A DNA stretch of 64,000 nt, from the IMG/VR virus record IMGVR_UViG_3300042259_000159. One strand, 5' to 3'. Under the pieces are notes generated by a model. That model searched no databases and was not told the DNA's origin. It saw only the letters and a list, made by a program, of their open reading frames with translations. The DNA comes from a virus. This document shows, one piece after another, positions 38,158-64,000 of the stretch. Position 1 is the first letter of the stretch. The number at the start of each line of letters is the position of its first letter. A program made the translations under genes and the position numbers.

Positions 38158-38502
38158 ATGTTTCCTATCAAGATGAATGTCAAGCATTTTTATGCCGCCA
38201 GAAAAGCGTTCCTGCATGCATTTATGCGCCACAACAACCCCGACAGTATATTCGACGAGACAGATTGCGCGATCAATGCCGTAAATCGTGAAAGAATCTA
38301 TAAAAAAAGAGAAAAGGACGCGTTTGTTGTTGGATTTCTTGCGTTTTTGTCTGATATTGACAATATCAAAGAGCTGTACAGACAGCACGGGGAAGATGCT
38401 GTTATGAAGACTTGGCTAGTAGACAAAAAACTGGTGCTTACCGGTGACGAAGATATGATAGACGATGTTCTGTATAGGGTAGGGCTCAAGGTAGCTAAAT
38501 AA
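38158..38502 (+). CDS. hypothetical protein
   Basis: Track ORF 114 aa with RBS agagaggt. Confidence 0.4.
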   Translation: MFPIKMNVKHFYAARKAFLHAFMRHNNPDSIFDETDCAINAVNRERIYKKREKDAFVVGFLAFLSDIDNIKELYRQHGEDAVMKTWLVDKKLVLTGDEDMIDDVLYRVGLKVAK

Positions 38503-39119
38503 TCAAAAAACCTCAAAACAACATAAATAACAGGAGCACACTATAACTGACCGCACATTCTTTATCCACCTTATATCCGGCCACGTTGCTACGCTCGAAG
38601 AGTGGAGGGCAGACTATAAGTCAATGGATGCAGAACTATGGCACGGCAAGCCCGCTGAAGAGTGCAACCCTGATGAATGGCTTAAAGACGGCCTCCTTGA
38701 GGAATATGAAGCGGATCCCAACGAATAAAGCAGTTACACCACAGAGGCACCTATGAGGTGCCTCTTCTTATGCCTACTAGCGCCGTTATCAGGGTAACGG
38801 CAGGAATCAGCGGGAAACATGTATATAAGGAAAGAAAAACTAAAAGATAACCTAGGACATACGTAAGAGGTAAAAAGCATTAGAAGGCGCATAAGGGGCA
38901 CTAAATATGCCCCTTATTTGTTTGTGTGTCTAATAGGCTTTGTGTGTGCAAAAAGGCTTGTATAGCGGCTTTATCATGGAAGCCGCGCATACAGGCAAGG
39001 CTTTTAGCACTATATATGCACAGATACGGTGTATCCGTGAATATGGTTAATAATCTCTAAATACCTGCCCGAAAGATATGAAATATCTTGAGGGGGGAAA
39101 CACACAATAATCCTCCTGT

Positions 39120-39370
39120 CAAGTGTTACTGATTTTGAATATCATTATCAATGGAGATATTGTCATTGAACAGCATAACGCTGTTATACACACGGATCAA
39201 TTAATTCCCATCGATCAGCATTTCGCTGGTGCTGCTGGAATCAACACTTGTTGAGATAATGACATCCATTATCAATGCTGTTCAATGGCCGTTTTCAACG
39301 GCAATGTTTCACGTGAAACATTCCTGATCAGAATACTGGCAAGAAACATTGATAACGACAATCTTTATCA
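39120..39370. repeat. palindrome/repeat cluster in large non-coding region
   Basis: Repeated cattatcaatg units, palindrome gtttcacgtgaaac, and gttgataacgacaatctttatcaac inverted repeat. Confidence 0.4.
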
Positions 39371-39442
39371 ACGTATCTGGCGATCCTTTCAGGTTAACAC
39401 AAATCTGGAAGAAAGTAAAGTAATATAAATTTTAATAAGGGG

Positions 39443-39471
39443 TTGACATCTTCCTGATATTTTGATATTAT
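39443..39471 (+). promoter_or_regulatory. sigma70-like promoter
   Basis: TTGACA, 17 nt spacer, TATTAT. Confidence 0.35.
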
Positions 39472-39967
39472 AGAAAGAGAGGCGTATGGGGAGGGGGGAG
39501 GCCTTAAGCACCGGTATACTTATATACCAAGTACCCCTATAGGTTCATGCCGGATATTTGCCCAAGTACCCCTATAATGGTATACCGATATACTTATACA
39601 CACCATATCTGCACACAGAAGGTATAGGGGGATATTTCCTGCTAGGATATTTCCACACAAAAAGGGGGAGTATATGGGAGGGATATTCCTGAAGGGAATA
39701 GATATTTTAGACAGGTATATATATATTATCTCTATGCTATATATACTCTATATATGTATATTCCATATATACATATTTCTTCTTATTCTATTCTTCTATT
39801 TCTACTAATGAGATATATACATATTAGGACAGCATATGCATGTGTCTACATCACATGTAGACACATATATACACATTCCCTTTCCTAACGGACAGCCGTA
39901 TTATAACATATTTTTTGGATTTTGTCAAGAACTTTTTTGTATTTCACATGGAAAATATTTCATACCG

Positions 39968-40085
39968 GCTATTCCTTTTGGGAATAGCCTATTCCATTTT
40001 GGAATAACCATTCCTAGGGGAATAGCCTGTTCCCAGAGGGAACAGACATACCCGAAGGGAATAGATATGCCCATTGGAAATAGCA
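39968..40085. repeat. array of GGAATAG-containing direct and inverted repeats
   Basis: gggaatagcc, ggaatagcctattcc, gaatagcctgttccc, gggaatagatatgccc, ggaaatagc within about 120 nt. Confidence 0.45.
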
Positions 40086-40414
40086 AAAGCCCACACACCT
40101 GTAAAGATATGTGGGCTGATAACATTAACAGTGTTAATAACATTAGCGAAGCTAATAATATTTTATCCTATCAATCAATACCTGTAGCTACGTGATCGAG
40201 GCAGAGCACCTGTGGTCGAGGTAGAACACCTTGCCAATGCAGAAGGTATGCCCTTCCTTCATAATGCGGAATGTTGCTTGCATGGGCACATTTACCTCCA
40301 CTACCCACTGGATGCCTTGTTCAGGCCAGAAACTCAAGCTGCCGTTAAACTCAAAAGGCTTTGCTTCACAACCCTTCACAGCGGTATTTATCTCTTCCAT
40401 ACCATCTTCACCAG

Positions 40415-41269
40415 TCATGACTCCACGGAATCAAGCAAACTTGGCTGCTTATTTCTACGGCTAATAGCCTCGGCGTCTAGCCGCTTAGCGATTATCTCGC
40501 AGTACTTTTCTTCGCGCTCTATCAGGATCCAGCGGCGGCTAGCACGCTCGGCTGCAACTGCTGTTGTGCCGCTGCCCGCGCAGAAATCAAGCACTGTTTC
40601 ACCTTCGTTGGTGTAGGTTTTGATGAGGTATTCCATTAGGGCAACAGGTTTTTGGGTTGGATGGAGTGCTTCAGAGTCTTGGCTAAATTTAATAACACCG
40701 CGAGGGTAGTTTGTAAATTCTTGTTTATAGCTTTCAGATTTGGTCAGATCATTATGTACACTTGTCCTATCCCCATTCTCTTTTAGAGAATCCTTCCGTG
40801 TCTTTGTCCCCGTGTTTTTTACCACCTTGTCCACCTTTACAAGCCCCTGCGCGTTATAAGTTGGCTGCTTGCGGTAGAATACAAGCACGTCCTCAAATCC
40901 TTTTAGCGGCATCCTTTTGGCATTGGGGAAATTTGTTGGACGACCTTTCTCCCAGACCCATGTGTATTTAAGCATTTTGAGATTACTAGCCCCCAAAAGA
41001 CTTGTAAACGGCTGGCTAGCAGTCATAACAACAGCCCCACTAGGCTTGATAGCCCGCTTCAACTGCTCCCACATTGGCTCTAGCGGAATAATGCTATCCC
41101 ACTTACACGCCGTCATTCCAATTCAGCCGTAGGGTGGATCGCATAACACCAGGTCTATAGAGCCGTCTGGGATATATTTCATAACCTCAAGACAATCTCC
41201 ATGAACCAACGTGTTAGGCAATACGCACCCTACGTGCTGTATCTCCTTTTCGTTAGTTATAGTAAACAT
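40415..41269 (-). pseudogene. beta-class N6-adenine/N4-cytosine DNA methyltransferase interrupted by an in-frame TGA
   Basis: Upstream segment MFTITNEKEIQHVGCVLPNTLVHGDCLEVMKYIPDGSIDLVLCDPPYG ends at TGA (41123-41125), then continues in the same frame as track ORF 40415-41116 (HPTQKP, DFCAGSGTT). Confidence 0.6.
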
Positions 41270-41811
41270 TAAATAAAATACTCCTGTATGTTTAGTTTCA
41301 AATTATTCCAATCTGTTTGTGTCATATCATTTTTGCACCTATTTTCAAACCACGACAAAAACTGCAAGTTTTCTATGTCATTAGTTCCTCCTTTTGCTTT
41401 TGGTGTTATGTGGTCTATTGATGGCTTTTTGTATTTTTCTTTACCGCCGCTAACCCATCTTTCATAAATCCTATTAAATTGATCGTCATAGTAAAACCTA
41501 CTTATATAACTTTTGTACCATTCAGTTGATATGTCCCATCTGCCTGAACGATTCGTAATTACATCATTTAACAGCTTTAATTTATCAAAATCCTTAAACT
41601 GCATTAACCAATCAGTCGTTACGTCAAACCTCAAGTGTGTTGCCATGTTGTTATAATTGCGCTCAATATCACAATTAAATTTTTTAACACCTCTTAGATT
41701 CTTGGGCTTTCTGGTCTGTACCCCATTTCTCTTCAGGATTCTTGATATTAGTTTGTGATTAGTACCTAGCTTATCCGCTATAGAGCGCATTGAATCGCCA
41801 CTTTTGTACAA
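41269..41811 (-). CDS. HNH homing endonuclease with N-terminal helix-turn-helix
   Basis: Track ORF 180 aa; HNH core SIDHITPKAKGGTNDIENLQFLSWFENRCK; lies between the two methyltransferase genes. Confidence 0.7.
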   Translation of the reverse strand: MYKSGDSMRSIADKLGTNHKLISRILKRNGVQTRKPKNLRGVKKFNCDIERNYNNMATHLRFDVTTDWLMQFKDFDKLKLLNDVITNRSGRWDISTEWYKSYISRFYYDDQFNRIYERWVSGGKEKYKKPSIDHITPKAKGGTNDIENLQFLSWFENRCKNDMTQTDWNNLKLNIQEYFI

Positions 41812-41816
41812 TTCAA

Positions 41817-42218
41817 CTAATGGATAAATAGGTAATCCCCAATCTCCTCGGGGCGTTTAGCATTTTTTACCTGCTCATTATAAGGAAGAACCAAGAGTTC
41901 ACCAACAGCATCCCTTTTGGATACAGGCAGTTTTTCTTCCAGCCGTTTTTGCATAGACTCGGAGTCCATTCCCATCAACAGCTCAAAAATCTCCAAATCT
42001 TTTAGACGATTATCGGTGGCAGGTAGAAGCGATCCAAGTATACAGGCTTTATTGAGTATCAGGGGTTTGCGCCCTTTCCAGTAACTGCCAAGAGCGGTCA
42101 ATGTTTTGCTCTGAACAGCGCTCTGTTCTTTAAAACTTTCAGCGGATATTTTTTGCACTGGAAAGAGATGTTCAATCAGTGCCGGTTTATCTTTCCATTC
42201 GAACGGTTTCAGTGCCAT
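41817..42218 (-). CDS. hypothetical protein
   Basis: Internal Met (MALKPFEW) of track ORF 41817-42293; overlapping ORF 42218-42448 in another frame leaves the start unclear. Confidence 0.35.
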   Translation of the reverse strand: MALKPFEWKDKPALIEHLFPVQKISAESFKEQSAVQSKTLTALGSYWKGRKPLILNKACILGSLLPATDNRLKDLEIFELLMGMDSESMQKRLEEKLPVSKRDAVGELLVLPYNEQVKNAKRPEEIGDYLFIH

Positions 42219-42592
42219 CAGATATCTCCCTTTTCTATAAATCCAACAAGAGGAAGGACTTCTTGTTTTGCTTGTATATTGTACATCTGGCAAAGATCAG
42301 TAAGATTGTCAGAAGATGTAACCCACTTACCAACCTGATTTTTGACATCGAAAAAGGTAACACCCTTATTGTGATTGCATGGTAAGAGGTTTTCAAAAAG
42401 ATTATGGCACCCCCTTAAGGAGGGCTTTTGTATCATAACACCTTCCACAGGTGGGACAAAATATTAAACTGGTTAGTTCTGTTTGGTGTATAGTCATCAA
42501 CACACCCTCCCATCACTTGTCATTTGCTTGCTCCTCTGTGTTTTTTGTATGGTTTTATAGCCTCGGCATCGCCCCTGCTTTCTGCCCATTGC

Positions 42593-43417
42593 TTAGATGA
42601 TTGCTTTATTCTCATGTGCACTCTCAATGCGCCGCTTGGCAATGTTGAAATAGCCTTGGTCTAGCTCAATACCGATAAAGCAGCGGTTCAGCAGCTTGGC
42701 CATCTTGCCAGTCGTACCGCTGCCCATGAAGGGGTCGAAAATCGTATCGCCTTCGTTTGACCAGCTTGATATATGTCTTTGCGCTAATTTTTCAGGAAAA
42801 ATTGCAGGGTGCTTAAACGCCTCACTATCCATTGTTGAGTGACCTTTACCTGTCGTTATGTACCATATATTTCCATCTATCTTATCTAATCCAACTGGTT
42901 TCCTTTTCTTGCCACTTCTGGCACTGCGCATTTTTTCAGTTGTAGATGAAAAATAACTGTTCTGACGTGAAGTTTCTTTTTCCGGATATTTTGTCGGAAC
43001 TCGAATGGCGTTAAAGGTTTTAGGTCTACCCTTACTAAAAACAAACATATACTCAAAATCTTGTTCGTATCTGTTGTGGTTTTTCGGTAGTGCGTTTTTA
43101 TGGTATATCATCGTATCATGCAGCCGGAAGCCGCACTCCATAGCCCACAATGCTTGCTTAAAGCTAGTACCTGTCTCACTACCCTTAATCGTGGCGTCAC
43201 CAACAACCCAAACAACAACCCCACCATCTTTAGTAACACGGTATAGGTCTTTAATAACCGCCTTCCAAACATGCTCTCCCCACAACGCATTATTGCCGTT
43301 ATAAGTGCGCAGATTATCGTATGGTGGGCTTGTTACCGTTAAATCAACAATACCATCAGGTATTTCTTTCATCCGCTCAAGGCAATCGCCTAGCATCAGC
43401 TTAATCATCATCACCAC
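42593..43417 (-). CDS. beta-class N6-adenine/N4-cytosine DNA methyltransferase
   Basis: Track ORF 274 aa; motif IV SPPY near the N-terminus, HPAIFP, motif I DPFMGSGTT near the C-terminus. Confidence 0.8.
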   Translation of the reverse strand: MVMMIKLMLGDCLERMKEIPDGIVDLTVTSPPYDNLRTYNGNNALWGEHVWKAVIKDLYRVTKDGGVVVWVVGDATIKGSETGTSFKQALWAMECGFRLHDTMIYHKNALPKNHNRYEQDFEYMFVFSKGRPKTFNAIRVPTKYPEKETSRQNSYFSSTTEKMRSARSGKKRKPVGLDKIDGNIWYITTGKGHSTMDSEAFKHPAIFPEKLAQRHISSWSNEGDTIFDPFMGSGTTGKMAKLLNRCFIGIELDQGYFNIAKRRIESAHENKAII

Positions 43418-43634: not shown

Positions 43635-44351
43635 TTATATTTCCGAAAGACGCTTGTTTCCCCTGAACCTTTTACCTTCCGAGTAATTTATTCTCTCCTC
43701 AAGATCAAGCATCCTCGCCCACAATTCCGGCTTATTATTTTTAACAGCCAAAAGGCTGTCCAAGGGTTGAAGGGGGCAGCAATAGCAGGATACCCTATTC
43801 ATGTGTTTGTAGAGGCCCCCCCAATCAAAGCCCCTATCATAGCAGTATTCAAGGGCTGATTTTTCGTCCATATCCCACTCTATCAAAGGAAAACGAAGAA
43901 TCCATCCATGTTTTTCAGCATTAGCATTCATTGTTCTAGAGAGCGCCCTCTCTGATTCATCTTTTGCAAAGCCAATACACTTAACAATGTTACCATCTAT
44001 TTTTTTATAGCTCATCCCCCTCAAATAGTAATCAAAAGCTTTTATCTTTTCTCTTGTACACCACCTTCTAGACGGTGATGGCCATCCAACACCACGGCAC
44101 CTTACTTCTTTAGTCCCCCTAGAGACCACTTCGTGCTCCGTAAGCCAATAATCAAAGGGTTTGTTTGGTTTGAGTATGGTGATTTTGCGAGAAATATAGT
44201 CTTCAACCTTTTTGATATGATCATACATCTCGGGAAATTCCCAACCTGTGTCAAACATAACAATGTCTTCAATCTTTTCTCCACATTCAATGGCCTTCAA
44301 AAGCATTGCTGTAGAATCCTTTCCCCCGCTAAAACTAAAAAATTGTCGCAT
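43635..44351 (-). CDS. PAPS reductase-like / PP-loop ATP pyrophosphatase family protein
   Basis: Track ORF 238 aa; PP-loop FSGGKDS at N-terminus and C-terminal Cys cluster CYCCP. Confidence 0.65.
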   Translation of the reverse strand: MRQFFSFSGGKDSTAMLLKAIECGEKIEDIVMFDTGWEFPEMYDHIKKVEDYISRKITILKPNKPFDYWLTEHEVVSRGTKEVRCRGVGWPSPSRRWCTREKIKAFDYYLRGMSYKKIDGNIVKCIGFAKDESERALSRTMNANAEKHGWILRFPLIEWDMDEKSALEYCYDRGFDWGGLYKHMNRVSCYCCPLQPLDSLLAVKNNKPELWARMLDLEERINYSEGKRFRGNKRLSEI

Positions 44352-48848: not shown

Positions 48849-51800
48849 CTAAATGCTTTTATCTACAAACTTTCTCTGTGGAAAATCAAATTCCCGCCTT
48901 GTTTTATTCCAAGCTTTTACGGGTGTAAAAAACCCAACAACCCTTGTCAGCTGTGTACTTATATCTTCCGAACATATGGGGCATGTACTGAAGGAACCCA
49001 TAGAGACATGGGAGTTGATACACTCAGAGTATACGGTATTAATGGCAAAATGTTCACATCCACAACCCAAAGCAAAACAGATAATTTTCTTGGCCTGCTC
49101 TCTTGTCAGCCTCTGCCCGACAGTGGCATGAACAATCCCCCCGCCTGTTAGGTTTTTAGTATATTCTCCGTCAATTCTGAGCCTGTCCCACAGAGATGCC
49201 TCTTCCCACAAAGGAACAAACTGGTTTGCATAGAGAGGGTATTCTATAAAAGTATCGCCGTGAATGATCTTATCTGCGCTGCAAACTTTTACAGCCATAC
49301 TCTCTGCTGGGATTTGCTCAATGTTGAAGACATATCCTGCGTTCTTCTTGGTATACAATCTAGCTTTTCTGTTAAGAAATGTCAAGATCTTTTTCTTCAA
49401 ATCCCCCTCAACACCGAACCTTTGTTTAAGAACCTTTTCACACTCGTAAAGACCAAGAATACCAAACGTTGAAAAGAGCCTGTTGAGGTCTATCCACCCA
49501 CGCGTTATAAAAGGCTGAAGACCTATTTGTTCAAGGACATGAATCAAGACCTTATGAGCAATCAGAATATCTTTAGCAGCCTCTACACGGTACGTGTATA
49601 TTTTCCAAAAATCATCAATACTCTCGGCCTCAATTGCCATCTTGTTGAAATTAAGAGTAACAACTCTATGGCTCCCGATGCTGGAAAGAACACCGGCACC
49701 GAAAGAATTGGAGGTGGATGCCACATCTAACATCTCTTCATCATTGATCAATCGGCAACAGCTAGCGATCTTTGTGCTCTCAGATGTGAAAATATTGTAG
49801 CGCGAAATGTCTCTATTAAGAAATATTTCCAAACTCTCTTCGTCTGCAAGGATGTAATCATCGCCGTCCTTAGTTTTTGAAATGTTCATCGTGCAAACAG
49901 GGAACCTGTAAGGCATCCCGTTATTTGAGGGATCTCCTTTATCAAAGATGTCTAGGAATATTTCCTGCAATTCAAAAACATAGTCAACACACTCTTCTAT
50001 ATCTACAACACCACCATCTGAAAACATCCACAAAAGATGTTCCTTTATGATGTACCTGAGTTTGTGTTTATCAAACACCGATACATTGGTAAAGGGACTC
50101 TCAACTCCGTCACGACTCAAATGGTTTACGCTGTGAATAAGCTGTTGAAACTCGTTTTCTATCTCTTTCCTCACAGCCTTATCGTTTTTAAGCACATCAA
50201 GGGGAACCTTATTCTTTATCATGAGAAGGTGAGCAACATCTATAAATACAGTACCTATGGCTAGAGCACCAGCAACATGCGATGACATTTGGTGGATTGT
50301 CTCACACAGGGCGGCAATATAACTATTAACTCTTTTTGCCGGTTTAGAGGGCAATACTCCAAAAGTTCTTCCTTCTGTAATGAGATTTGTTGCGTTTAAA
50401 GAATAACAATTATGTTGCACCATTCCGTTTGCATAAAAACGGCCCGTTGCTGTTGTCAAATCATATACGTCTTGAAGCTCCTCTCTAAGCTTTCTTGTAC
50501 TAGGAATGTCTTCAAGATTAAACCTGATGATTTTTACAACCCTGTTGCTTTCGCCCTTGGTGTTTGCTTTTTCATTATACTTATCATAGTCTTCTTTATG
50601 CATCTTCATCTTATCAGAAAGATCAACCATCTTATTCGTACTTGACGGGACAAAGGAAAGGGCATAAATCGAATTAGAAATATCACTCCCTTTTATCCTT
50701 TTTCTAAGGCATCGAATACCTTCAATGCCTCTAAGGACGTCATAAAGTGTGTTTATTACTGCCATAGACTGCAAACAAATCTCCACCCTGCCATTCTTTT
50801 TGTAGGTATATCCGTCCGCGTCTACAAGCCCCGCAACAAGTGCCTCTACAGAATCATTTGTCCAAGAGAGGATGTTCTTAGGAAGAACCTTTGTGAAGCT
50901 ATTTTCTTTGTTCCCGAAACCAAAAAAGGCACTTACAAGAAAATTCATATCATAAGAAGACCAATTAATCTGTCTCTCGACTTTATCACTGGGCTTAAAA
51001 AGATTCGCATCAGGAAACAAGTCTTTTATGATACTATAAATTCTTGAGTTATCAATATCGTTTTGATAAACACTGCAAAGCGTTCCCCCTCTTGTAAATC
51101 TGAAAGAGCCTTTTATGTCCTTACCGTTCATTACGCCATCATCAACACAATACCCTTCAAAGTTCCCATCACCAAGCATAAAGCCAAGAAGGTAGGCCAG
51201 CTTTTCTGGAACAATTATTGTTTTTTCCACGGAGGGCAAACAAGTCTCTGTCAAAACAGCATCCCCAACAGAAAGTTCTGAGGCTATTTTTTCAGTTCCA
51301 TCTTCCATATAGATTGGGTGGTTGTCTGTTACCAAAGCAAAGTGCCCTGCCTCTGTCTGATACAAAGAGAATCCTGTATCCGTTTTATGCTTGATAATAC
51401 GTTGTACAGCAACCCATCCATTGTTTGTATCCCAAACCTCTATATTAACTTTTTCACTCACATTGCAGGCCAACTTACCGGAACGACCTTTTGCGGTGTT
51501 CTTGTTAGTGATGTTCGCACTCACATTATTACGCAGCATTGCTGTTGTAATCTCTAGATCTCTTGTAAGGCCTTTTGTGTTAATTTCCTCATGCGTACCC
51601 CTATTTTCGGAGTGTATTGCAAACATATTGAAAAGCTTTTTAAGAGGAATACAAATAATCTCTCCGTTAATTCTGACAAAAACAGGCGTGTTTCCATAAT
51701 ACGAATATGGAAGGTTTAGCTTCGTGCTGTCGGAGATGGGAAGACTGAAATCCAACATTTCTCCTATAAGCCTTTTAGCCCTCTTCTTGCCGTAGAGTTC

Positions 51801-52151
51801 CTTCATAACACGGTAGAGGAAATCGTACCCTGCAATTTTTTTCTGGGGGGCACTTGCCTCACTCTGTATTCCGGCAATTGTCTTCTCATTCTTATTAGCA
51901 TTGTCATCAATAGAGACATCATTAATGTTTGCATTTAATTGTTTTTGAAACATCTTGAGAAAGTCTGTATTGTCCTGCGAAAGACCATGCAGACGCATAA
52001 GTTTTTCAGCTTTTGTATCAATCTCTTCTTGAGAAAGGGTTGTTTTACGAGAAAGATTCCTTTTCAAAGCCTTAAGCATCTGTTTCCGTGTGTATTCAAT
52101 CTCAGCATCATTTGTAAAAGATGAAGAAAAACCTTTAGCTATGCTATTCAA
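48849..52151 (-). CDS. nrdD: anaerobic ribonucleoside-triphosphate reductase (class III) carrying an intein
   Basis: C-terminus has four-Cys zinc ribbon (CINSH...CPIC) and glycyl-radical motif TRVVGF...WNKTRREF. Start uncertain: track begins at TTG 52220; TTG at 52151 after AAGGAG is preferred here. Confidence 0.8.
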   Translation of the reverse strand: MNSIAKGFSSSFTNDAEIEYTRKQMLKALKRNLSRKTTLSQEEIDTKAEKLMRLHGLSQDNTDFLKMFQKQLNANINDVSIDDNANKNEKTIAGIQSEASAPQKKIAGYDFLYRVMKELYGKKRAKRLIGEMLDFSLPISDSTKLNLPYSYYGNTPVFVRINGEIICIPLKKLFNMFAIHSENRGTHEEINTKGLTRDLEITTAMLRNNVSANITNKNTAKGRSGKLACNVSEKVNIEVWDTNNGWVAVQRIIKHKTDTGFSLYQTEAGHFALVTDNHPIYMEDGTEKIASELSVGDAVLTETCLPSVEKTIIVPEKLAYLLGFMLGDGNFEGYCVDDGVMNGKDIKGSFRFTRGGTLCSVYQNDIDNSRIYSIIKDLFPDANLFKPSDKVERQINWSSYDMNFLVSAFFGFGNKENSFTKVLPKNILSWTNDSVEALVAGLVDADGYTYKKNGRVEICLQSMAVINTLYDVLRGIEGIRCLRKRIKGSDISNSIYALSFVPSSTNKMVDLSDKMKMHKEDYDKYNEKANTKGESNRVVKIIRFNLEDIPSTRKLREELQDVYDLTTATGRFYANGMVQHNCYSLNATNLITEGRTFGVLPSKPAKRVNSYIAALCETIHQMSSHVAGALAIGTVFIDVAHLLMIKNKVPLDVLKNDKAVRKEIENEFQQLIHSVNHLSRDGVESPFTNVSVFDKHKLRYIIKEHLLWMFSDGGVVDIEECVDYVFELQEIFLDIFDKGDPSNNGMPYRFPVCTMNISKTKDGDDYILADEESLEIFLNRDISRYNIFTSESTKIASCCRLINDEEMLDVASTSNSFGAGVLSSIGSHRVVTLNFNKMAIEAESIDDFWKIYTYRVEAAKDILIAHKVLIHVLEQIGLQPFITRGWIDLNRLFSTFGILGLYECEKVLKQRFGVEGDLKKKILTFLNRKARLYTKKNAGYVFNIEQIPAESMAVKVCSADKIIHGDTFIEYPLYANQFVPLWEEASLWDRLRIDGEYTKNLTGGGIVHATVGQRLTREQAKKIICFALGCGCEHFAINTVYSECINSHVSMGSFSTCPICSEDISTQLTRVVGFFTPVKAWNKTRREFDFPQRKFVDKSI
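50409..51467 (-). mobile_element. intein with LAGLIDADG homing-endonuclease domain inside nrdD
   Basis: In-frame insert with block B GHFALVTDNH, two LAGLIDADG motifs (LLGFMLGDGNF, LVAGLVDADGY), C-terminal block VYDLTTATGRFYANGMVQHN followed by Cys. N-terminal boundary (CNVSEK vs earlier Cys) uncertain. Confidence 0.6.
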
Positions 52152-52659
52152 AGCAGTAAACTCCTTCTTTTGTAAGTTTAACATAATTATTATTATAAAG
52201 TTCTTGGTTAGACGAACCAAGTACGAGTTTTGTCCTTTGCCCTTTTGTTGTATCTGACTGGTGCAGTTCTTTTATATACTCTCCTGTTTTTATAAATTTG
52301 AAACCGTTAAGATTAAGGTATTTAACAGTGTCAATATCGTATCCAGTATAAATACATATGTTAAAACACCCACCGTATTGTTCTAAGAACTGTGCTGTAA
52401 ACCCTCTGTTGCAGGAGGCTAGCGGATCTCCACCAAGAAGTACAATATTATTTGTGCGGTATTTTAAGGTCTCCTGTTTACAATGGTTGTAGAAGTCTTC
52501 AATGGAAAATTCCACACCACCCTGATATTCAGGGTTTTGCAGGGAGGGGTTATGACACCCCTTACAGGAAAAATCACACCCACACATAAAAAGACTTACT
52601 GCCCACCCATCCTTTGAGGGGTAGTCTGTAAATGTCATCTCAGAACCTGCAAATCTCAT
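52144..52659 (-). CDS. nrdG: anaerobic RNR activating enzyme (radical SAM)
   Basis: Track ORF 171 aa; radical-SAM Cys motif CDFSCKGC (C-x3-C-x2-C) near the N-terminus. Confidence 0.8.
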   Translation of the reverse strand: MRFAGSEMTFTDYPSKDGWAVSLFMCGCDFSCKGCHNPSLQNPEYQGGVEFSIEDFYNHCKQETLKYRTNNIVLLGGDPLASCNRGFTAQFLEQYGGCFNICIYTGYDIDTVKYLNLNGFKFIKTGEYIKELHQSDTTKGQRTKLVLGSSNQELYNNNYVKLTKEGVYCFE

Positions 52660-55122: not shown

Positions 55123-55206
55123 TGGTAGGAGAAGAGAGATTCGAACTCTCAAGGAATAATCCGTCGAGGCTTAAACTCGATGTGTTTACCATTTCACCAT
55201 TCTCCC
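55123..55206 (-). tRNA. tRNA-Leu (anticodon TAA), type II, CCA encoded
   Basis: Hand-folded cloverleaf: acceptor GGGAGAA/TTCTCCT, anticodon stem TCGAG/CTCGA with loop TTTAAGC, long variable arm, T-arm GAGAG-TTCGAAT-CTCTC. Confidence 0.7.
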
Positions 55207-55245
55207 GTATTTTTTATCTACCATTCCGCCATTCCCGCATTTATT

Positions 55246-55323
55246 TGGTACCCACTGTGAGATTCGAACCCACACTAATCAGTTTCTAAGACTGATGCCT
55301 CTGCCAAGTTGGGCTATACCAGT
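55246..55323 (-). tRNA. aberrant tRNA-like gene (anticodon TAG, type I architecture, poorly paired acceptor stem)
   Basis: Good D-, anticodon (TCAGT-CTTAGAA-ACTGA) and T-arms, but 5' acceptor ACTGGTA mispairs with the adjacent 3' strand AGTGGGT. Confidence 0.4.
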
Positions 55324-56574: not shown

Positions 56575-56860
56575 GTTGGTGCAGATTGTGAACGTACCCC
56601 CGCCTATAGAGGCGGAAGCTTCCTGCTTCAGCGAGAACAGCACCAGTAACTCCGAAGAGTTGTGGCGAATTACACTCTCTCCACAGGCGTAAATTCCCGT
56701 GCGACCCACGGTACTTTATGAGTTACGCTAGGCAGATATTCGCCCAGCTTCTTCTCTAATATTTATTGCAGCGTTCTTGTCACGGTTATGATGACTGCCA
56801 CACTTAAGGCAATCCCATTCCCGCACAGACAAGTCTTTGGTATCCTTGTTCTGGTAGCCA
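56575..56860 (-). ncRNA. candidate TnpB guide RNA (omega/reRNA) region at the element right end
   Basis: By analogy with IS200/IS605 TnpB systems the guide RNA overlaps the tnpB 3' end and runs to the right-end hairpin (56600-56615). Not folded or aligned. Confidence 0.3.
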
Positions 56861-57965
56861 CAGACATGGCATAGCTGACTGCTTGGATACCATTTGTCTA
56901 TCTTGATAAGTTGCTTACCCTGCCATGCAAGTTTGTATTTCAGCATACTTGTGAACATGCTCCAGCCGTTGTCGGATATGGATTTACCAAAGTTGAACTT
57001 GCCACCCTTCTTTCGCTTCGCCATGTCCTTTACGCTAATGTCCTCTATGCCAATCACATCATAGCGGTCTGCAAGATAACGAGCTTTCTTATGCAGGAAG
57101 TCGCGGCGTTGATTAGCAATTTTCTCATGGAGTACAGCCAAACGTAGTCTTTGTTTATTCCTATTACGGCTCCCTTTTTGTCTCTTGGAGAGTTTTCTTT
57201 GTGCCTTGATCAATCTCTTTTCGGCTTCCCGTAAGAAATTTGGATAATCGGCGTTGTCCTCATCGGAAGCAACATACATCCCGTGCATAGCAAAATCCAA
57301 TCCAAGAAAATTCTTCGGTATGATGGGAAGTATTTGGTTTTCATACTCCACCAAAATACTAATATAGTATTTTCCTGACGGTGTTTTACTTATGGTTACA
57401 GTCTTTATGGTGCTATTCTCCATCAATGGACGATGCAGACACAGCTTTACCCAACCTATTTTCGGCAGCTTGACTTTGTTTCCCTCGATTCTTACAGAGC
57501 CATGTTGGTTGTTCGTAGAATATGAAGCATGACCCGCTTTCTTCGACTTGAAGCGTGGCTTGCAAAAATGCTTCCTATTGCTCCAAAAGTTGTTATACGC
57601 CTTGTTCAGGTTTATTTGGGCATTGGCGAGAGCAAGGCTGTCAACCTCTTTCAGCCAAGGAAACTCTTTCTTGTACTGTGCAGGTGTGTTGTTCAGCCTC
57701 TCTCCTGTTTCCTTATAGTGATCAAGACGATCTCCAAGCATCTTGTTATAGATGAATCTGGCACTGCCGAAAGTCTTGGCAAACATAATCTTCTGTTCAA
57801 TTGTCGGGTAGAGTCTATATCGGTATGCCTTATTCACTATAATCACCTGCCTTGATTTTCTATGTATTTACGAATTGTCTCAAACGGAGCAATTATCTGG
57901 CTCAACTACTTACGTAAATTCGCTAGACACACCTTCATCCCCCACCTTAGAGGTGGAGGGCTTCT
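56590..57965 (-). mobile_element. IS200/IS605-family insertion element carrying tnpB only
   Basis: tnpB flanked by similar imperfect palindromes: cccgcctatagaggcgg (56600-56615) and ccaccttagaggtgg (57942-57956). No Y1 tnpA. Inserted between tandem tRNA-Leu genes and the rest of the tRNA array. Confidence 0.65.
56728..57846 (-). CDS. tnpB: TnpB (RuvC-like RNA-guided endonuclease, IS605 OrfB family)
   Basis: Track ORF 372 aa; N-terminal YRYRLYPT, RuvC-like region, C-terminal zinc finger CHVCGY...CLKCG. Confidence 0.85.
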   Translation of the reverse strand: MIIVNKAYRYRLYPTIEQKIMFAKTFGSARFIYNKMLGDRLDHYKETGERLNNTPAQYKKEFPWLKEVDSLALANAQINLNKAYNNFWSNRKHFCKPRFKSKKAGHASYSTNNQHGSVRIEGNKVKLPKIGWVKLCLHRPLMENSTIKTVTISKTPSGKYYISILVEYENQILPIIPKNFLGLDFAMHGMYVASDEDNADYPNFLREAEKRLIKAQRKLSKRQKGSRNRNKQRLRLAVLHEKIANQRRDFLHKKARYLADRYDVIGIEDISVKDMAKRKKGGKFNFGKSISDNGWSMFTSMLKYKLAWQGKQLIKIDKWYPSSQLCHVCGYQNKDTKDLSVREWDCLKCGSHHNRDKNAAINIREEAGRISA

Positions 57966-58022: not shown

Positions 58023-58109
58023 TGGTGCCCAATGCAGGACTCGAACCTGCACGCCATTTCAGGCAGGAGGGCTTAAACCTCGTGTGTCTACCAATTCCAC
58101 CAATCGGGC
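58023..58109 (-). tRNA. tRNA-Leu (anticodon TAA), type II, CCA encoded
   Basis: Acceptor GCCCGAT/ATTGGGC, anticodon loop TTTAAGC, long variable arm, T-arm GCAGG-TTCGAGT-CCTGC. Confidence 0.65.
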
Positions 58110-58118
58110 TAAAATCTT

Positions 58119-58202
58119 TGGTGCCTCAGACAGGATTCGAACCTGCACGGATCTCTCCACTTGGTCCTAAGCCAAGCGTGTCTGCCATTCCACCACTGAG
58201 GC
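58119..58202 (-). tRNA. tRNA-Leu (anticodon TAG), type II, CCA encoded
   Basis: Acceptor GCCTCAG/CTGAGGC, anticodon stem CTTGG/CCAAG with loop CTTAGGA, long variable arm, T-arm GCAGG-TTCGAAT-CCTGT. Confidence 0.7.
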
Positions 58203-63350: not shown

Positions 63351-63585
63351 TCAGGAAACATCAAGGGTTAATTAGTAGCCCCTTGTGTTGGTGACAGCGC
63401 AAGCAAACTAACCTAATTCGGTGGAAGCCCAAACATGTAGGATGTGGGTGATACCGAGCAAGCCACGGCGTGTGTAACGACTAGTTCTTAGGAACGTAGG
63501 CCCAAGCGGGTCGAAACGGTTAGCATCTTATTAAGATGAAGATATAGTCTACTCTGCATGGAAACATGCAGCGGACACTTTATGT
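63350..63585 (+). mobile_element. group I intron core (candidate), copy 2
   Basis: R-like gtaacgactagttc (63474-63487), S-like gaagatatagtctac (about 63537-63551), P9-like hairpin ctgcatggaaacatgcag (63553-63570). Confidence 0.5.
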
Positions 63586-63594
63586 GTCGGGCAG

Positions 63595-63860
63595 ATGTTA
63601 GCGCCATCTGTTGAATATTATGTACAATATACCCTGATATGCTTTGATGAGGCAACACATTTCACTTTCCAACAAGTTGAATACTTAATGTCACGTATGA
63701 GAAGTAAAAGTAAGTATGCTTCTCGTATGGTTCTGTCGTGGATTACGCGACATGTATGGCGAAAGCTGTACTGGCAACTGTGTGAACTCAGGGAAACCTT
63801 AGCTGCTGCAATTGGGCAGAGGAAGAAGGCAATCCTGAGCGAAGCCTTCCCACCGGGAAG
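63595..63860 (+). CDS. terL: terminase large subunit, exon with Walker B
   Basis: Walker B ICFDEATHF shortly after the start of track ORF 63595-63888; 3' boundary approximate. Confidence 0.5.
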
Positions 63861-64000
63861 GAACGTGCAACGACCATCGAAAGCGTAACACCTGTTACAG
63901 TGAGTAGAGTACACCACACATGTGTGGTGGAAGCGCACAGCCCCTAACATGTAACGATGAGGGTGAAGATATGGTCTGAACCTACAGAAATGTAGAAAAA
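63860..64000 (+). mobile_element. group I intron core (candidate), copy 3, running off the window
   Basis: R-like gtgcaacgaccatcga (63864-63879), S-like gaagatatggtctgaac (63965-63981), P9-like hairpin ctacagaaatgtag (63982-63995). Confidence 0.45.

Follow-up and report, generated by a model that had tools for sequence, protein, structure and literature searches.

Can a DNA methyltransferase gene still yield a whole enzyme when a stop codon directly follows its catalytic motif? The question is raised by a locus in the virus record IMGVR_UViG_3300042259_000159, of which a stretch of 64,000 nucleotides (nt), hereafter the window, was analysed. On its minus strand, an open reading frame (ORF) starts at ATG 41269-41267, runs for 48 codons up to GAT CCA CCC TAC GGC (DPPYG) and meets a TGA at 41125-41123, past which the same frame (ATT GGA ATG ACG GCG TGT AAG TGG...) is open for another 235 codons, down to a second TGA at 40417-40415. 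An initial annotation had recognised there a beta-class DNA methyltransferase with the motifs DPPY, HPTQKP and DFCAGSGTT and an in-frame TGA, for which it left three options, i.e., a nonsense-inactivated gene, programmed readthrough or a sequencing error. The enzyme class, the motifs and the stop are borne out by the translation and by a 109-bit match to the Pfam family N6_N4_Mtase (PF01555); what had been overlooked is that the stop is part of a 9-nt insertion, that it is flanked by Gly codons and that an HNH endonuclease gene lies immediately upstream. In our view, the locus probably exemplifies a family in which a selfish element of about 700 nt inserts itself at the DPPYG|TTACKWD site of methylase genes, bringing its own ribosome-binding site and a replacement N-terminus, and ends in a mini bypass cassette (a Gly codon, a stop, a short G-free spacer and a second Gly codon) on which the ribosome would hop from Gly to Gly. 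For the window gene itself, a hop is most likely too, which we state less confidently than for the family. All the evidence on this family is comparative. The parts of the interrupted gene are as follows, the body starting with ATG 41116-41114:

41126..41269, minus strand: leader ORF, 48 codons (translation)
41126..41128, minus strand: GGC, Gly of DPPYG, proposed take-off codon (codon bias at interrupted junctions)
41123..41125, minus strand: in-frame stop TGA, next to the take-off codon on its 3' side (all 106 element-type inserts have a stop here)
41120..41122, minus strand: ATT, spacer proposed to remain undecoded (G-free spacer rule across the family)
41117..41119, minus strand: GGA, proposed landing codon (last three bases of the insert, in the body frame)
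40415..41116, minus strand: methylase body, 233 codons, from ATG 41116 to TGA 40417-40415 (translation, ORF list)

One Gene on Both Sides of a Genuine Stop Codon

The two ORFs are one gene by homology, because the PF01555 match runs unbroken over the stop, as a single stretch from profile position 1 to position 220 of 221 (cut-off: 26.7 bits). The leader is made of a novel N-terminal extension, MFTITNEKEIQHVGCVLPNT, followed by the methylase N-terminus and catalytic motif IV, LVHGDCLEVMKYIPDGSIDLVLCDPPYG, and the body carries motifs V-VIII, the target-recognition region, HPTQKP and DFCAGSGTT (motif I). With motif IV (DPPY) in the leader, N-terminal to a motif I lying near the C-terminus, the order is that of the beta class; the best matches in the PDB are CcrM and M.RsrI, and the leader can be aligned to CcrM as far as DPPY. 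Like other beta-class methyltransferases (PF01555; CcrM 6pbd, M.RsrI 1eg2, DpnA 5hek), the window gene has motif IV first and motif I (FxGxG) last and matches the full profile, but it differs from them in being interrupted after motif IV and in the roughly 20 foreign residues that extend its N-terminus. The homologue P0002 was modelled with AlphaFold2; in this model, the part equivalent to the leader comprises two core strands, a helix and the catalytic DPPY loop, and the junction falls within this loop.

The stop is no artefact of sequencing or assembly, because the 855-nt stretch is identical across independent assemblies, i.e., in four other contigs (L001-L004) from four samples (JGI 3300042258 and 3300042269; Logan SRR35174882 and SRR35183615). 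With the same sequence in five assemblies, the same junction also in the IMG/VR contig L013 and more than 100 related junctions elsewhere, the option of a sequencing error falls away. The view that the genome as a whole is not recoded is upheld: TGA terminates 7 of the 50 long ORFs of the window, several of them with ATGA stop/start overlaps, including the 3' end of the methylase gene itself, and alternative stop sets give no signal of reassignment, since dropping any single stop codon lengthens the ORFs of the window about equally. None of the eight tRNA genes of the window is a suppressor. An Rfam scan returned nothing at the methylase locus, its matches in the window being limited to tRNAs and two distant group I introns, and no near DNA match to the locus was found among GenBank phages. 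In the public (JGI) call, the gene is present as a 219-residue fragment from MWEQ (P0001) and a separate ORF of 48 amino acids (aa).

An Insertion Shared with Diverged Relatives

Uninterrupted homologues that are 76-81% identical to the body (P0002-P0006) read DPPYG-TTACKWDS where the window reads DPPYG-*IG-MTACKWDS. One Thr codon of the homologues corresponds to TGA-ATT-GGA-ATG in the window, i.e., a 9-nt insertion plus a Thr-to-Met change, and on this alignment the in-frame TGA is to be read as an insertion rather than as a nonsense change of a single codon. Diverged relatives in other genomic contexts read DPPYG-*IG-TTACKWDS (L005) and DPPYG-*LG-TTACKWDS (L006), the feature common to all three being 9 nt of the form TGA-NTN-GGN after the Gly codon. 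The uninterrupted DPPYG-TTACKWD spacing is exact in 108 of the 120 best homologues, and deleting the insert restores this consensus; the 12 exceptions are P0001 (the truncated call, 100% identical), truncated interrupted genes, P0055 (a call under genetic code 4), P0115 (a deletion) and P0098 (a divergent motif). Thr follows DPPYG in 104 of 104 homologues and at 105 of 106 interrupted junctions, and an ATG directly after the landing codon, in place of ACN (Thr), is found in the window lineage only.

Two apparent variants were examined and set aside. The sequence DPPYGWLG of P0055 is not a sense version of the insert, the gene having been called under genetic code 4 from DNA (L083 157-927) that has TGA; and the odd N-termini of P0023 and P0025 are leader DNA read in the body frame of a 10-nt junction.

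Nucleotide Rules of the Inserts

The family was delineated by pattern scans in which the insert was left free: a degenerate first pattern freed the first two insert codons, and later scans freed the third codon and then any gap length. The metagenome collection was scanned with a narrower 9-nt DPPYG pattern, and the counts of the non-9-nt classes come mainly from viral contigs; moreover, the junctions are phylogenetically related, so that the raw counts below overstate the independent observations. The first pattern brought 73 further loci, with a stop as first insert codon in 79 of 79, and freeing the third codon yielded one more locus, in which AGC takes the place of GGN, and no sense version. 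Altogether, more than 120 loci with 108 distinct junctions were collected, with inserts of 4, 5, 6, 7, 8, 9, 10 and 11 nt, which are exemplified, in this order, by L271, L269, L139, L268, L108, the window, L115 and L289.

Their anatomy is uniform. A stop directly follows the upstream Gly codon in all 106 element-type inserts (TGA 71, TAG 23, TAA 12), and a sense-codon derivative of this stop occurs at none of these junctions. The last three bases of the insert are GGA (43), GGC (39), GGT (13), AGC (10) or GTT (1) and never GGG (n = 106; GGH 90%), and this landing triplet is in frame with TTACKWD at every insert length. Between stop and landing codon, spacers of 0-5 nt are devoid of G (T 151, A 78, C 52, G 0 over 281 nt), while the base 3' of the stop is A or C at 86% of the element-type junctions. 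Upstream of the stop, the codons are biased as well: the take-off Gly is GGC or GGT in 94% of the 106 interrupted alleles vs. 33% of the 120 uninterrupted ones, the preceding Pro is CCC in 84% vs. 10%, and the Tyr is TAC in 83% vs. 40%. GGG makes up 18% of the Gly codons elsewhere in the same genes, yet it is never the landing codon, and when the middle codon of the 9-nt insert encodes Leu, it is always CTT or CTA, although TTA and TTG account for 54% of the Leu codons elsewhere.

To judge from these biases, the constraints on the insert act on nucleotides and not on protein. That the spacer is free of G and that GGG and NTG-GGN are avoided is what a unique landing site would call for, since GGG would create an out-of-frame GGA. 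The same anatomy recurs at 28 distinct out-of-frame junctions, and open frames of 41-89 codons in the leader and of 200-290 codons in the body are kept even in the 4, 5, 7, 8, 10 and 11 nt classes, in which the two are out of frame with each other. The ten junctions that end in AGC (L271-L273, L281, L288, L296, L280, L282, L297 and L080) all have GGT as take-off codon and the local sequence TTAGC (TAGC, TAGTTAGC, TGAATTAGC); AGC would be either a near-cognate landing codon or the sign of a variant mechanism.

A Mobile HNH Module Ending at the Proposed Landing Codon

Immediately upstream of the leader lies the gene of an HNH endonuclease, and the edges of sequence identity delimit a module that runs from this gene to the landing codon:

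41117..41819, minus strand: whole mobile module of about 700 nt, i.e., HNH gene, replacement leader and stop-containing spacer with landing codon (identity edges)
41269..41811, minus strand: HNH endonuclease ORF, 180 aa from TTG 41811, or 173 aa from the JGI-called ATG (Pfam, PHROG)
41281..41285, minus strand: Shine-Dalgarno-like AGGAG, 11 nt upstream of the leader ATG (read from the sequence)

The predicted endonuclease has an N-terminal helix-turn-helix (HTH_38) and a C-terminal HNH motif (Pfam HNH PF01844, 27 bits), it matches the PHROG endonuclease VII / HNH families, and its stop overlaps the start of the leader (TAATG). A Shine-Dalgarno-like motif precedes the leader in 30 of 41 distinct regions. 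In most interrupted loci, an HNH homologue (41-100% identity) ends 2-3 nt before the leader, and several others keep decayed remnants, while an adjacent HNH gene or an element-type leader is found at 0 of 177 uninterrupted junctions. On the left, similarity to other loci (L007, L012, L017, L022, L037, L063 and L064) repeatedly ends at about 41819. At the right edge, identity to many loci is 92-100% over the final 84 nt of the leader and 61-76% over the 150 nt of body that follow; compared with the uninterrupted L085, the relation is reversed (64% identity in the leader region, 73-80% in the body). Furthermore, at 30 of 56 loci the recipient has kept its original N-terminus upstream of the HNH gene, with the break falling within the DPPYG codons (e.g., ...DPPYG|VLC*). 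In L084, an AT-rich leader is joined to a GC-rich methylase exactly at TACGGC|, which amounts to a transfer to a foreign background.

The last case has a further peculiarity. In L084 (4001-4756; the phage methylase P0115), a 3' remnant of the HNH gene and the AT-rich leader are fused directly to ...TVIPFEP, the spacer and the TTACKWD codons having been lost, which leaves an ORF that is uninterrupted but deleted of its motif. On a contig of 2.7 kb (L123 159-2616), two tandem methylase paralogues, with an intact HNH gene between them, have both been invaded; their leaders are 48 codons long and their out-of-frame inserts, of 10 nt, are the same, which suggests spread between paralogues within one genome. 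Two cultured phages, Vibrio phage VnaP (L298; ON212104) and Pseudoalteromonas phage H101 (L299; KR534323), carry an HNH homologue (47% identity) directly after a methylase N-terminal fragment ending in ...TDLP*, and in VnaP the fragments on either side of the HNH gene are annotated 'DNA methylase'. In both phages, the HNH gene occupies the DPPY site of a methylase gene that has decayed; these loci were rejected as hop cassettes but offer possible laboratory handles for this HNH family.

On the other side of the element, an ORF of 158 aa (41817-42293, minus strand) abuts the left edge; it matches the first 85 of the 960 positions of the anti-phage-associated DUF1156 methylase-like family and is a stand-alone DUF1156 N-terminal domain in a phage. 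In L003, the DUF1156-like ORF is only 85% identical, though the HNH and methylase genes are 100% identical. The idea that the HNH gene had inserted into a DUF1156-type methylase was rejected, the body being a small beta-class enzyme closest to uninterrupted genes without DUF1156.

Selection on Leader and Body

Leaders are always closer to each other than the bodies are. Because the leaders are younger than the bodies, the ratio of nonsynonymous to synonymous substitution rates (dN/dS) of the body is largely uninformative on function after the invasion, and we relied instead on the leader and on one pair of co-diverged loci. Among element lineages that all carry the stop, the ratio of nonsynonymous to synonymous differences per site (pN/pS) of the leader is 0.11-0.16, and for the body it is 0.12-0.23 in the 4-nt class, in which the body is out of frame. 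The pair in question, L300 and L301, carries TGACTTCGGT, i.e., the common 9-nt TGACTTGGT plus one C, and its leader and body have the same pS (0.19 each), with a body pN/pS of 0.13. Equal leader and body pS together with a low body pN/pS indicate that this gene has been maintained since its out-of-frame insert arose. By these measures, the bodies of the out-of-frame classes are under purifying selection. The arrangement has also been retained between leader clades with no more than 60-70% nucleotide identity and between HNH proteins as little as 41% identical.

A Proposed Hop from Glycine to Glycine

The reading that we favour can be spelled out on the window gene. Translation would start at the element's own leader ATG (41269). 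With GGC in the P site and TGA in the A site, the peptidyl-tRNA-Gly would unpair, the mRNA would slip by 9 nt, and the tRNA would re-pair at GGA (41119-41117), so that decoding would resume at the next codon. The predicted product is a single enzyme of 281 aa, with DPPYG-MTACKWD, the junction peptide YIPDGSIDLVLCDPPYGMTACK and no inserted residues. Across the family, the tRNA would re-pair at the first G-containing cognate or near-cognate triplet, giving D(P/L)PYG-TTACKWD. As for the spacer, a seamless fusion of leader and body would recreate the target of the endonuclease, presumed to be the uninterrupted junction DNA ...GAYCCNCCNTAYGGNACNACNGCNTGYAARTGG...; the spacer would break this site, and the hop would rescue the protein. 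By analogy with mobA and gene 60 of phage T4, such a role in self-immunity is likely. The presumed target has indirect support in an insertion site that falls within the DPPYG codons and in the position of the HNH homologues, at DPPY, in VnaP and H101.

Several observations weigh against this account. The wobble base often differs between take-off and landing codons (in about a third of the 9-nt class, GGC is matched with GGA), AGC makes up 9% of the landings, always with a GGT take-off, and GTT a single one, so that in many cases re-pairing would have two base pairs to rely on. A conserved RNA structure was not detected at the junction (RNAalifold on 65 junction regions: -1.6 kcal/mol; single folds: mean z of -0.08), and no nascent-peptide signal common to all clades was found, the extension FTITNEKEVQ.VG being specific to the main clade; the leader, though strongly conserved, doubles as the N-terminus of the enzyme. 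With neither kind of stimulator, the efficiency may be low, as in synthetic hops. Next, within the 9-nt insert the middle codon seems to be kept as Leu/Ile (95% have T at the second position), which fits readthrough as well, and the window lineage has Met for an otherwise invariant Thr. Two ordinary-looking methylase genes have sense inserts of two codons at the very site (L270: GGT-GGG, i.e., GG; L290: AAC-GGG, i.e., NG), from which it would follow that small insertions may be tolerated there; the AACGGG of L290 possibly derives from a 7-nt TAACGGN junction that lost its T. Finally, uninterrupted DPPYG-TTACKWD paralogues stand next to an invaded copy and its HNH gene in L008 (minus strand), L021 and L033, so that the endonuclease is either more sequence-specific than the protein motif or inactive there, and the self-targeting part of the model is weakened by this coexistence.

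Alternative Explanations

Programmed readthrough, among the options left by the initial annotation, came nearest to the favoured hop in that it supposes a recoding event. The window's own 9-nt version is in frame, but readthrough cannot make the proteins of the relatives, because the body is out of frame at 4, 5, 7, 8, 10 and 11 nt. To cover the whole family, it has to be combined with other conventional events: readthrough for inserts of 3n nt (the window included), a +1 shift at a 'shifty stop' for 3n+1 and a -1/+2 shift for 3n+2, yielding enzymes with 1-4 extra residues after DPPYG (DPPYG-W-I-G-MTACKWD in the window). Such a mixture is an unlikely competitor. TGA, the leakiest stop, is enriched (67% of the junctions vs. 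14% of the gene ends in the window), and an A or C after the stop, as seen at most junctions, is a weak termination context, an effect of stop-codon context on termination being established for Escherichia coli; the Leu/Ile-like middle codon and the GG and NG inserts of L270 and L290 also fit decoded inserts. Yet three mechanisms would be needed for one uniform anatomy, P-site re-pairing would be poor for +1 (GGC to GCU) and for -1 (to CGG), and in L283 a simple +1 shift would run into a TAA in that frame of the spacer. Nor does the mixture account for the ending in a Gly codon, the lack of G in the spacer or the avoided codons (GGG and CTG/TTG/TTA), and it has to accommodate TAA, the tightest stop, at 12 junctions, as well as the lack of any sense-codon derivative of the stop among the 106.

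For the window lineage alone, one may imagine instead that translation terminates at the TGA and re-initiates at ATG 41116, which would give a 48-aa leader and a 233-aa body associating non-covalently into a two-piece methylase. Coupled re-initiation is possible over a short distance between stop and start, and the two are near enough here; besides, it is precisely in this lineage that an ATG has replaced the invariant Thr codon after the landing codon. Genes split by homing endonucleases into two working polypeptides are also on record in T4-type phages (gp39/gp60, split nrdA; bioRxiv 10.1101/2022.08.31.505936). We nevertheless find this scenario rather improbable: no Shine-Dalgarno motif lies at a usable distance, as GGA abuts the ATG, and by the structural model two core strands and the catalytic loop would have to come from the leader in trans. 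Re-initiation cannot serve the whole family, because in 67 of 83 related loci the first in-frame start lies 16 codons downstream, past the conserved TTACKWDSIIPLEP.

The methylase could also simply be dead, inactivated by a parasitic HNH element, with downstream ORFs still intact only because the invasions are recent. This resembles the nonsense-inactivated gene of the initial annotation, an option that finds no support in the leader and out-of-frame body ratios given above, and we rate its chances as slim. The greater likeness of leaders than of bodies does point to a recent spread of the module across old, diverged genes, and there are decayed cases: in L044 a stop cuts the body short at 25 codons, L084 lacks TTACKWD, several loci keep HNH remnants only, and the Thr-to-Met change of the window could be early decay. 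Against this stand the low leader pN/pS among stop-carrying lineages, the persistence of the arrangement across diverged leader clades and HNH proteins, and the co-diverged leader and body of L300/L301; nothing in a dead gene would keep up rules as strict as those of the insert (stop, G-free spacer, Gly codon).

Lastly, decoding of the stop through an alternative code (TGA as Trp or Gly) or as selenocysteine has, like the sequencing error dealt with above, already been refuted: the public call P0055, which reads DPPYGWLG, was made under code 4 from DNA with a TGA, the ordinary use of TGA in the window speaks against reassignment, as do the ORF lengths and the tRNA set, no conserved downstream hairpin (selenocysteine insertion sequence) was seen, and the use of all three stops, with TAG or TAA in place of TGA at 35 junctions, excludes selenocysteine, pyrrolysine and TGA reassignment alike.

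Comparison with Known Systems

Very few systems are known in which programmed bypassing occurs naturally, i.e., gene 60 of T4 with its relatives, the inserts of yeast mitochondria and, as a candidate, one case in Streptomyces phages. The hop that we favour most resembles the first of these, in which the HNH homing element mobA is associated with the gene 60 bypass (Bonocora et al. 2011, cited from bioRxiv 10.1101/2022.08.31.505936, and T4 record NC_000866). In both cases, an HNH ORF lies immediately upstream, the element brings an N-terminal extension and a replacement segment of the target and has a bypass cassette at its end, and the upstream fragment of the recipient is left behind with a short foreign tail. 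A Gly take-off codon, a stop directly after it and a Gly landing codon, those of the methylases being proposed ones, are shared as well (GGA-UAG...GGA in T4; bioRxiv 10.1101/2022.08.31.505936, PMC5009743), and the proposed logic is the same, an insert that destroys the endonuclease target and a bypass that rescues the protein. The differences are nonetheless substantial: the T4 gap is 50 nt (20 nt in one Aeromonas clade) vs. 4-11 nt here; a take-off stem-loop is present there, whereas no conserved structure is seen here; the codons are GGA and GGA there, whereas the wobble base is often unequal here; and the target is a topoisomerase II there and a DNA methyltransferase here. T4 bypassing is about 40-50% efficient, whereas the methylase family is known here through sequence comparison. 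Between T4 MobA and the HNH protein of the element, only the HNH catalytic motif can be aligned (37% over 40 aa, E value of 3e-4 against 7 kb of T4), and on this comparison the likeness is one of architecture, the element being analogous and not homologous to MobA. The absent stem-loop, for its part, is a matter of structure being specific to long-gap bypassing and not required for short hops.

In size, the closest parallels are the synthetic stop hops and two-codon hops of E. coli (Weiss et al. 1987, O'Connor et al. 1989 and Kane et al. 1992, cited via PMC5009743 and bioRxiv 10.1101/2022.08.31.505936). As these are described there, 9 nt are turned into one amino acid by re-pairing at a matching codon beyond a slow A-site codon, and +5 and +6 hops match the 5-nt and 6-nt classes found here; they differ in being engineered or obtained by overexpression and of low efficiency, whereas the methylase cases are natural, conserved and numerous. 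A 2016 review considered in-frame stop hopping to be without known natural occurrence (PMC5009743).

Inserts of 10 nt in the terminase gene carried by Streptomyces phage phiHau3 have been proposed to be bypassed (PMC10732093). They share with the methylase junctions a short gap in a phage gene, a Gly take-off (GWG|N) and a slow A-site codon as trigger, and the bypass is backed by mass spectrometry on E. coli expression (PMC10732093). There, however, the trigger is a rare UUA sense codon tied to the host bldA tRNA, with a proposed regulatory role, the suggested stimulators are flanking stem-loops and a Shine-Dalgarno sequence, a homing endonuclease plays no part and only a few genes are concerned. 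The bypass inserts ('byps') of Magnusiomyces capitatus mitochondria, cited via PMC5009743, are likewise many short mobile inserts in protein-coding genes, neutralised by bypassing between matching take-off and landing codons; unlike those of the methylases, they are 27-55 nt long, GC-rich, structured and mitochondrial, they come without an endonuclease gene, and their A-site codon is unassigned. In the literature searched, no description of a methyltransferase bypass or of a natural stop-hop family was found.

Other Features of the Window

The interrupted gene is not the only methylase gene in the window. Just upstream (42593-43417, minus strand), a second beta-class methylase is uninterrupted and has the motif SPPY (PF01555, 160 bits), and a protein with a PAPS-reductase domain is encoded further upstream (43635-44351, minus strand); the phage carries several DNA-modification genes. 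Just downstream of the methylase operon, about 1.7 kb (38500-40200) contain no ORF above about 120 aa on either strand and show low-complexity pyrimidine-rich runs.

Other putative mobile or self-splicing features are found at a distance. The anaerobic ribonucleotide reductase NrdD (48849-52220, minus strand; 1123 aa; PF13597) matches an intein splicing domain at about residues 258-604, so that nrdD appears to be interrupted by an intein. At the end of the window there are two group I introns with about 150 nt between them (63359-63571 and 63728-63997, plus strand; Rfam RF00028, 76 and 77.5 bits). Lastly, an IS605-type TnpB (56728-57846, minus strand; OrfB_IS605 plus a Cas12f-like TNB domain) is located between two copies of a tRNA-Leu(taa)/tRNA-Leu(tag) pair (55123-55314 and 58023-58202), which looks like a duplication of the tRNA pair associated with a transposon-like gene.

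Implications

On balance, we are inclined to regard these junctions as the first family of short 'stop hops' known from nature and maintained in evolution, with hops of 4-11 nt from Gly to Gly in any frame; an HNH homing element not described before, aimed at the catalytic DPPY motif of phage beta-class methylase genes and equipped with its own replacement N-terminus, would have created and spread the family. If this is true, hops that are minimal in their requirements, i.e., GGY, a stop, a G-free spacer and GGH, without RNA structure, would be used in nature, and the graded natural series of gap lengths and landing codons would amount to a mutational data set on what minimal bypassing requires. 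It would also generalise the co-evolution of homing endonucleases and bypass cassettes as self-immunity devices. Gene callers, for their part, split or truncate these methylases, or switch the whole contig to genetic code 4, and in consequence the methylomes and anti-restriction repertoires of phages are under-annotated.

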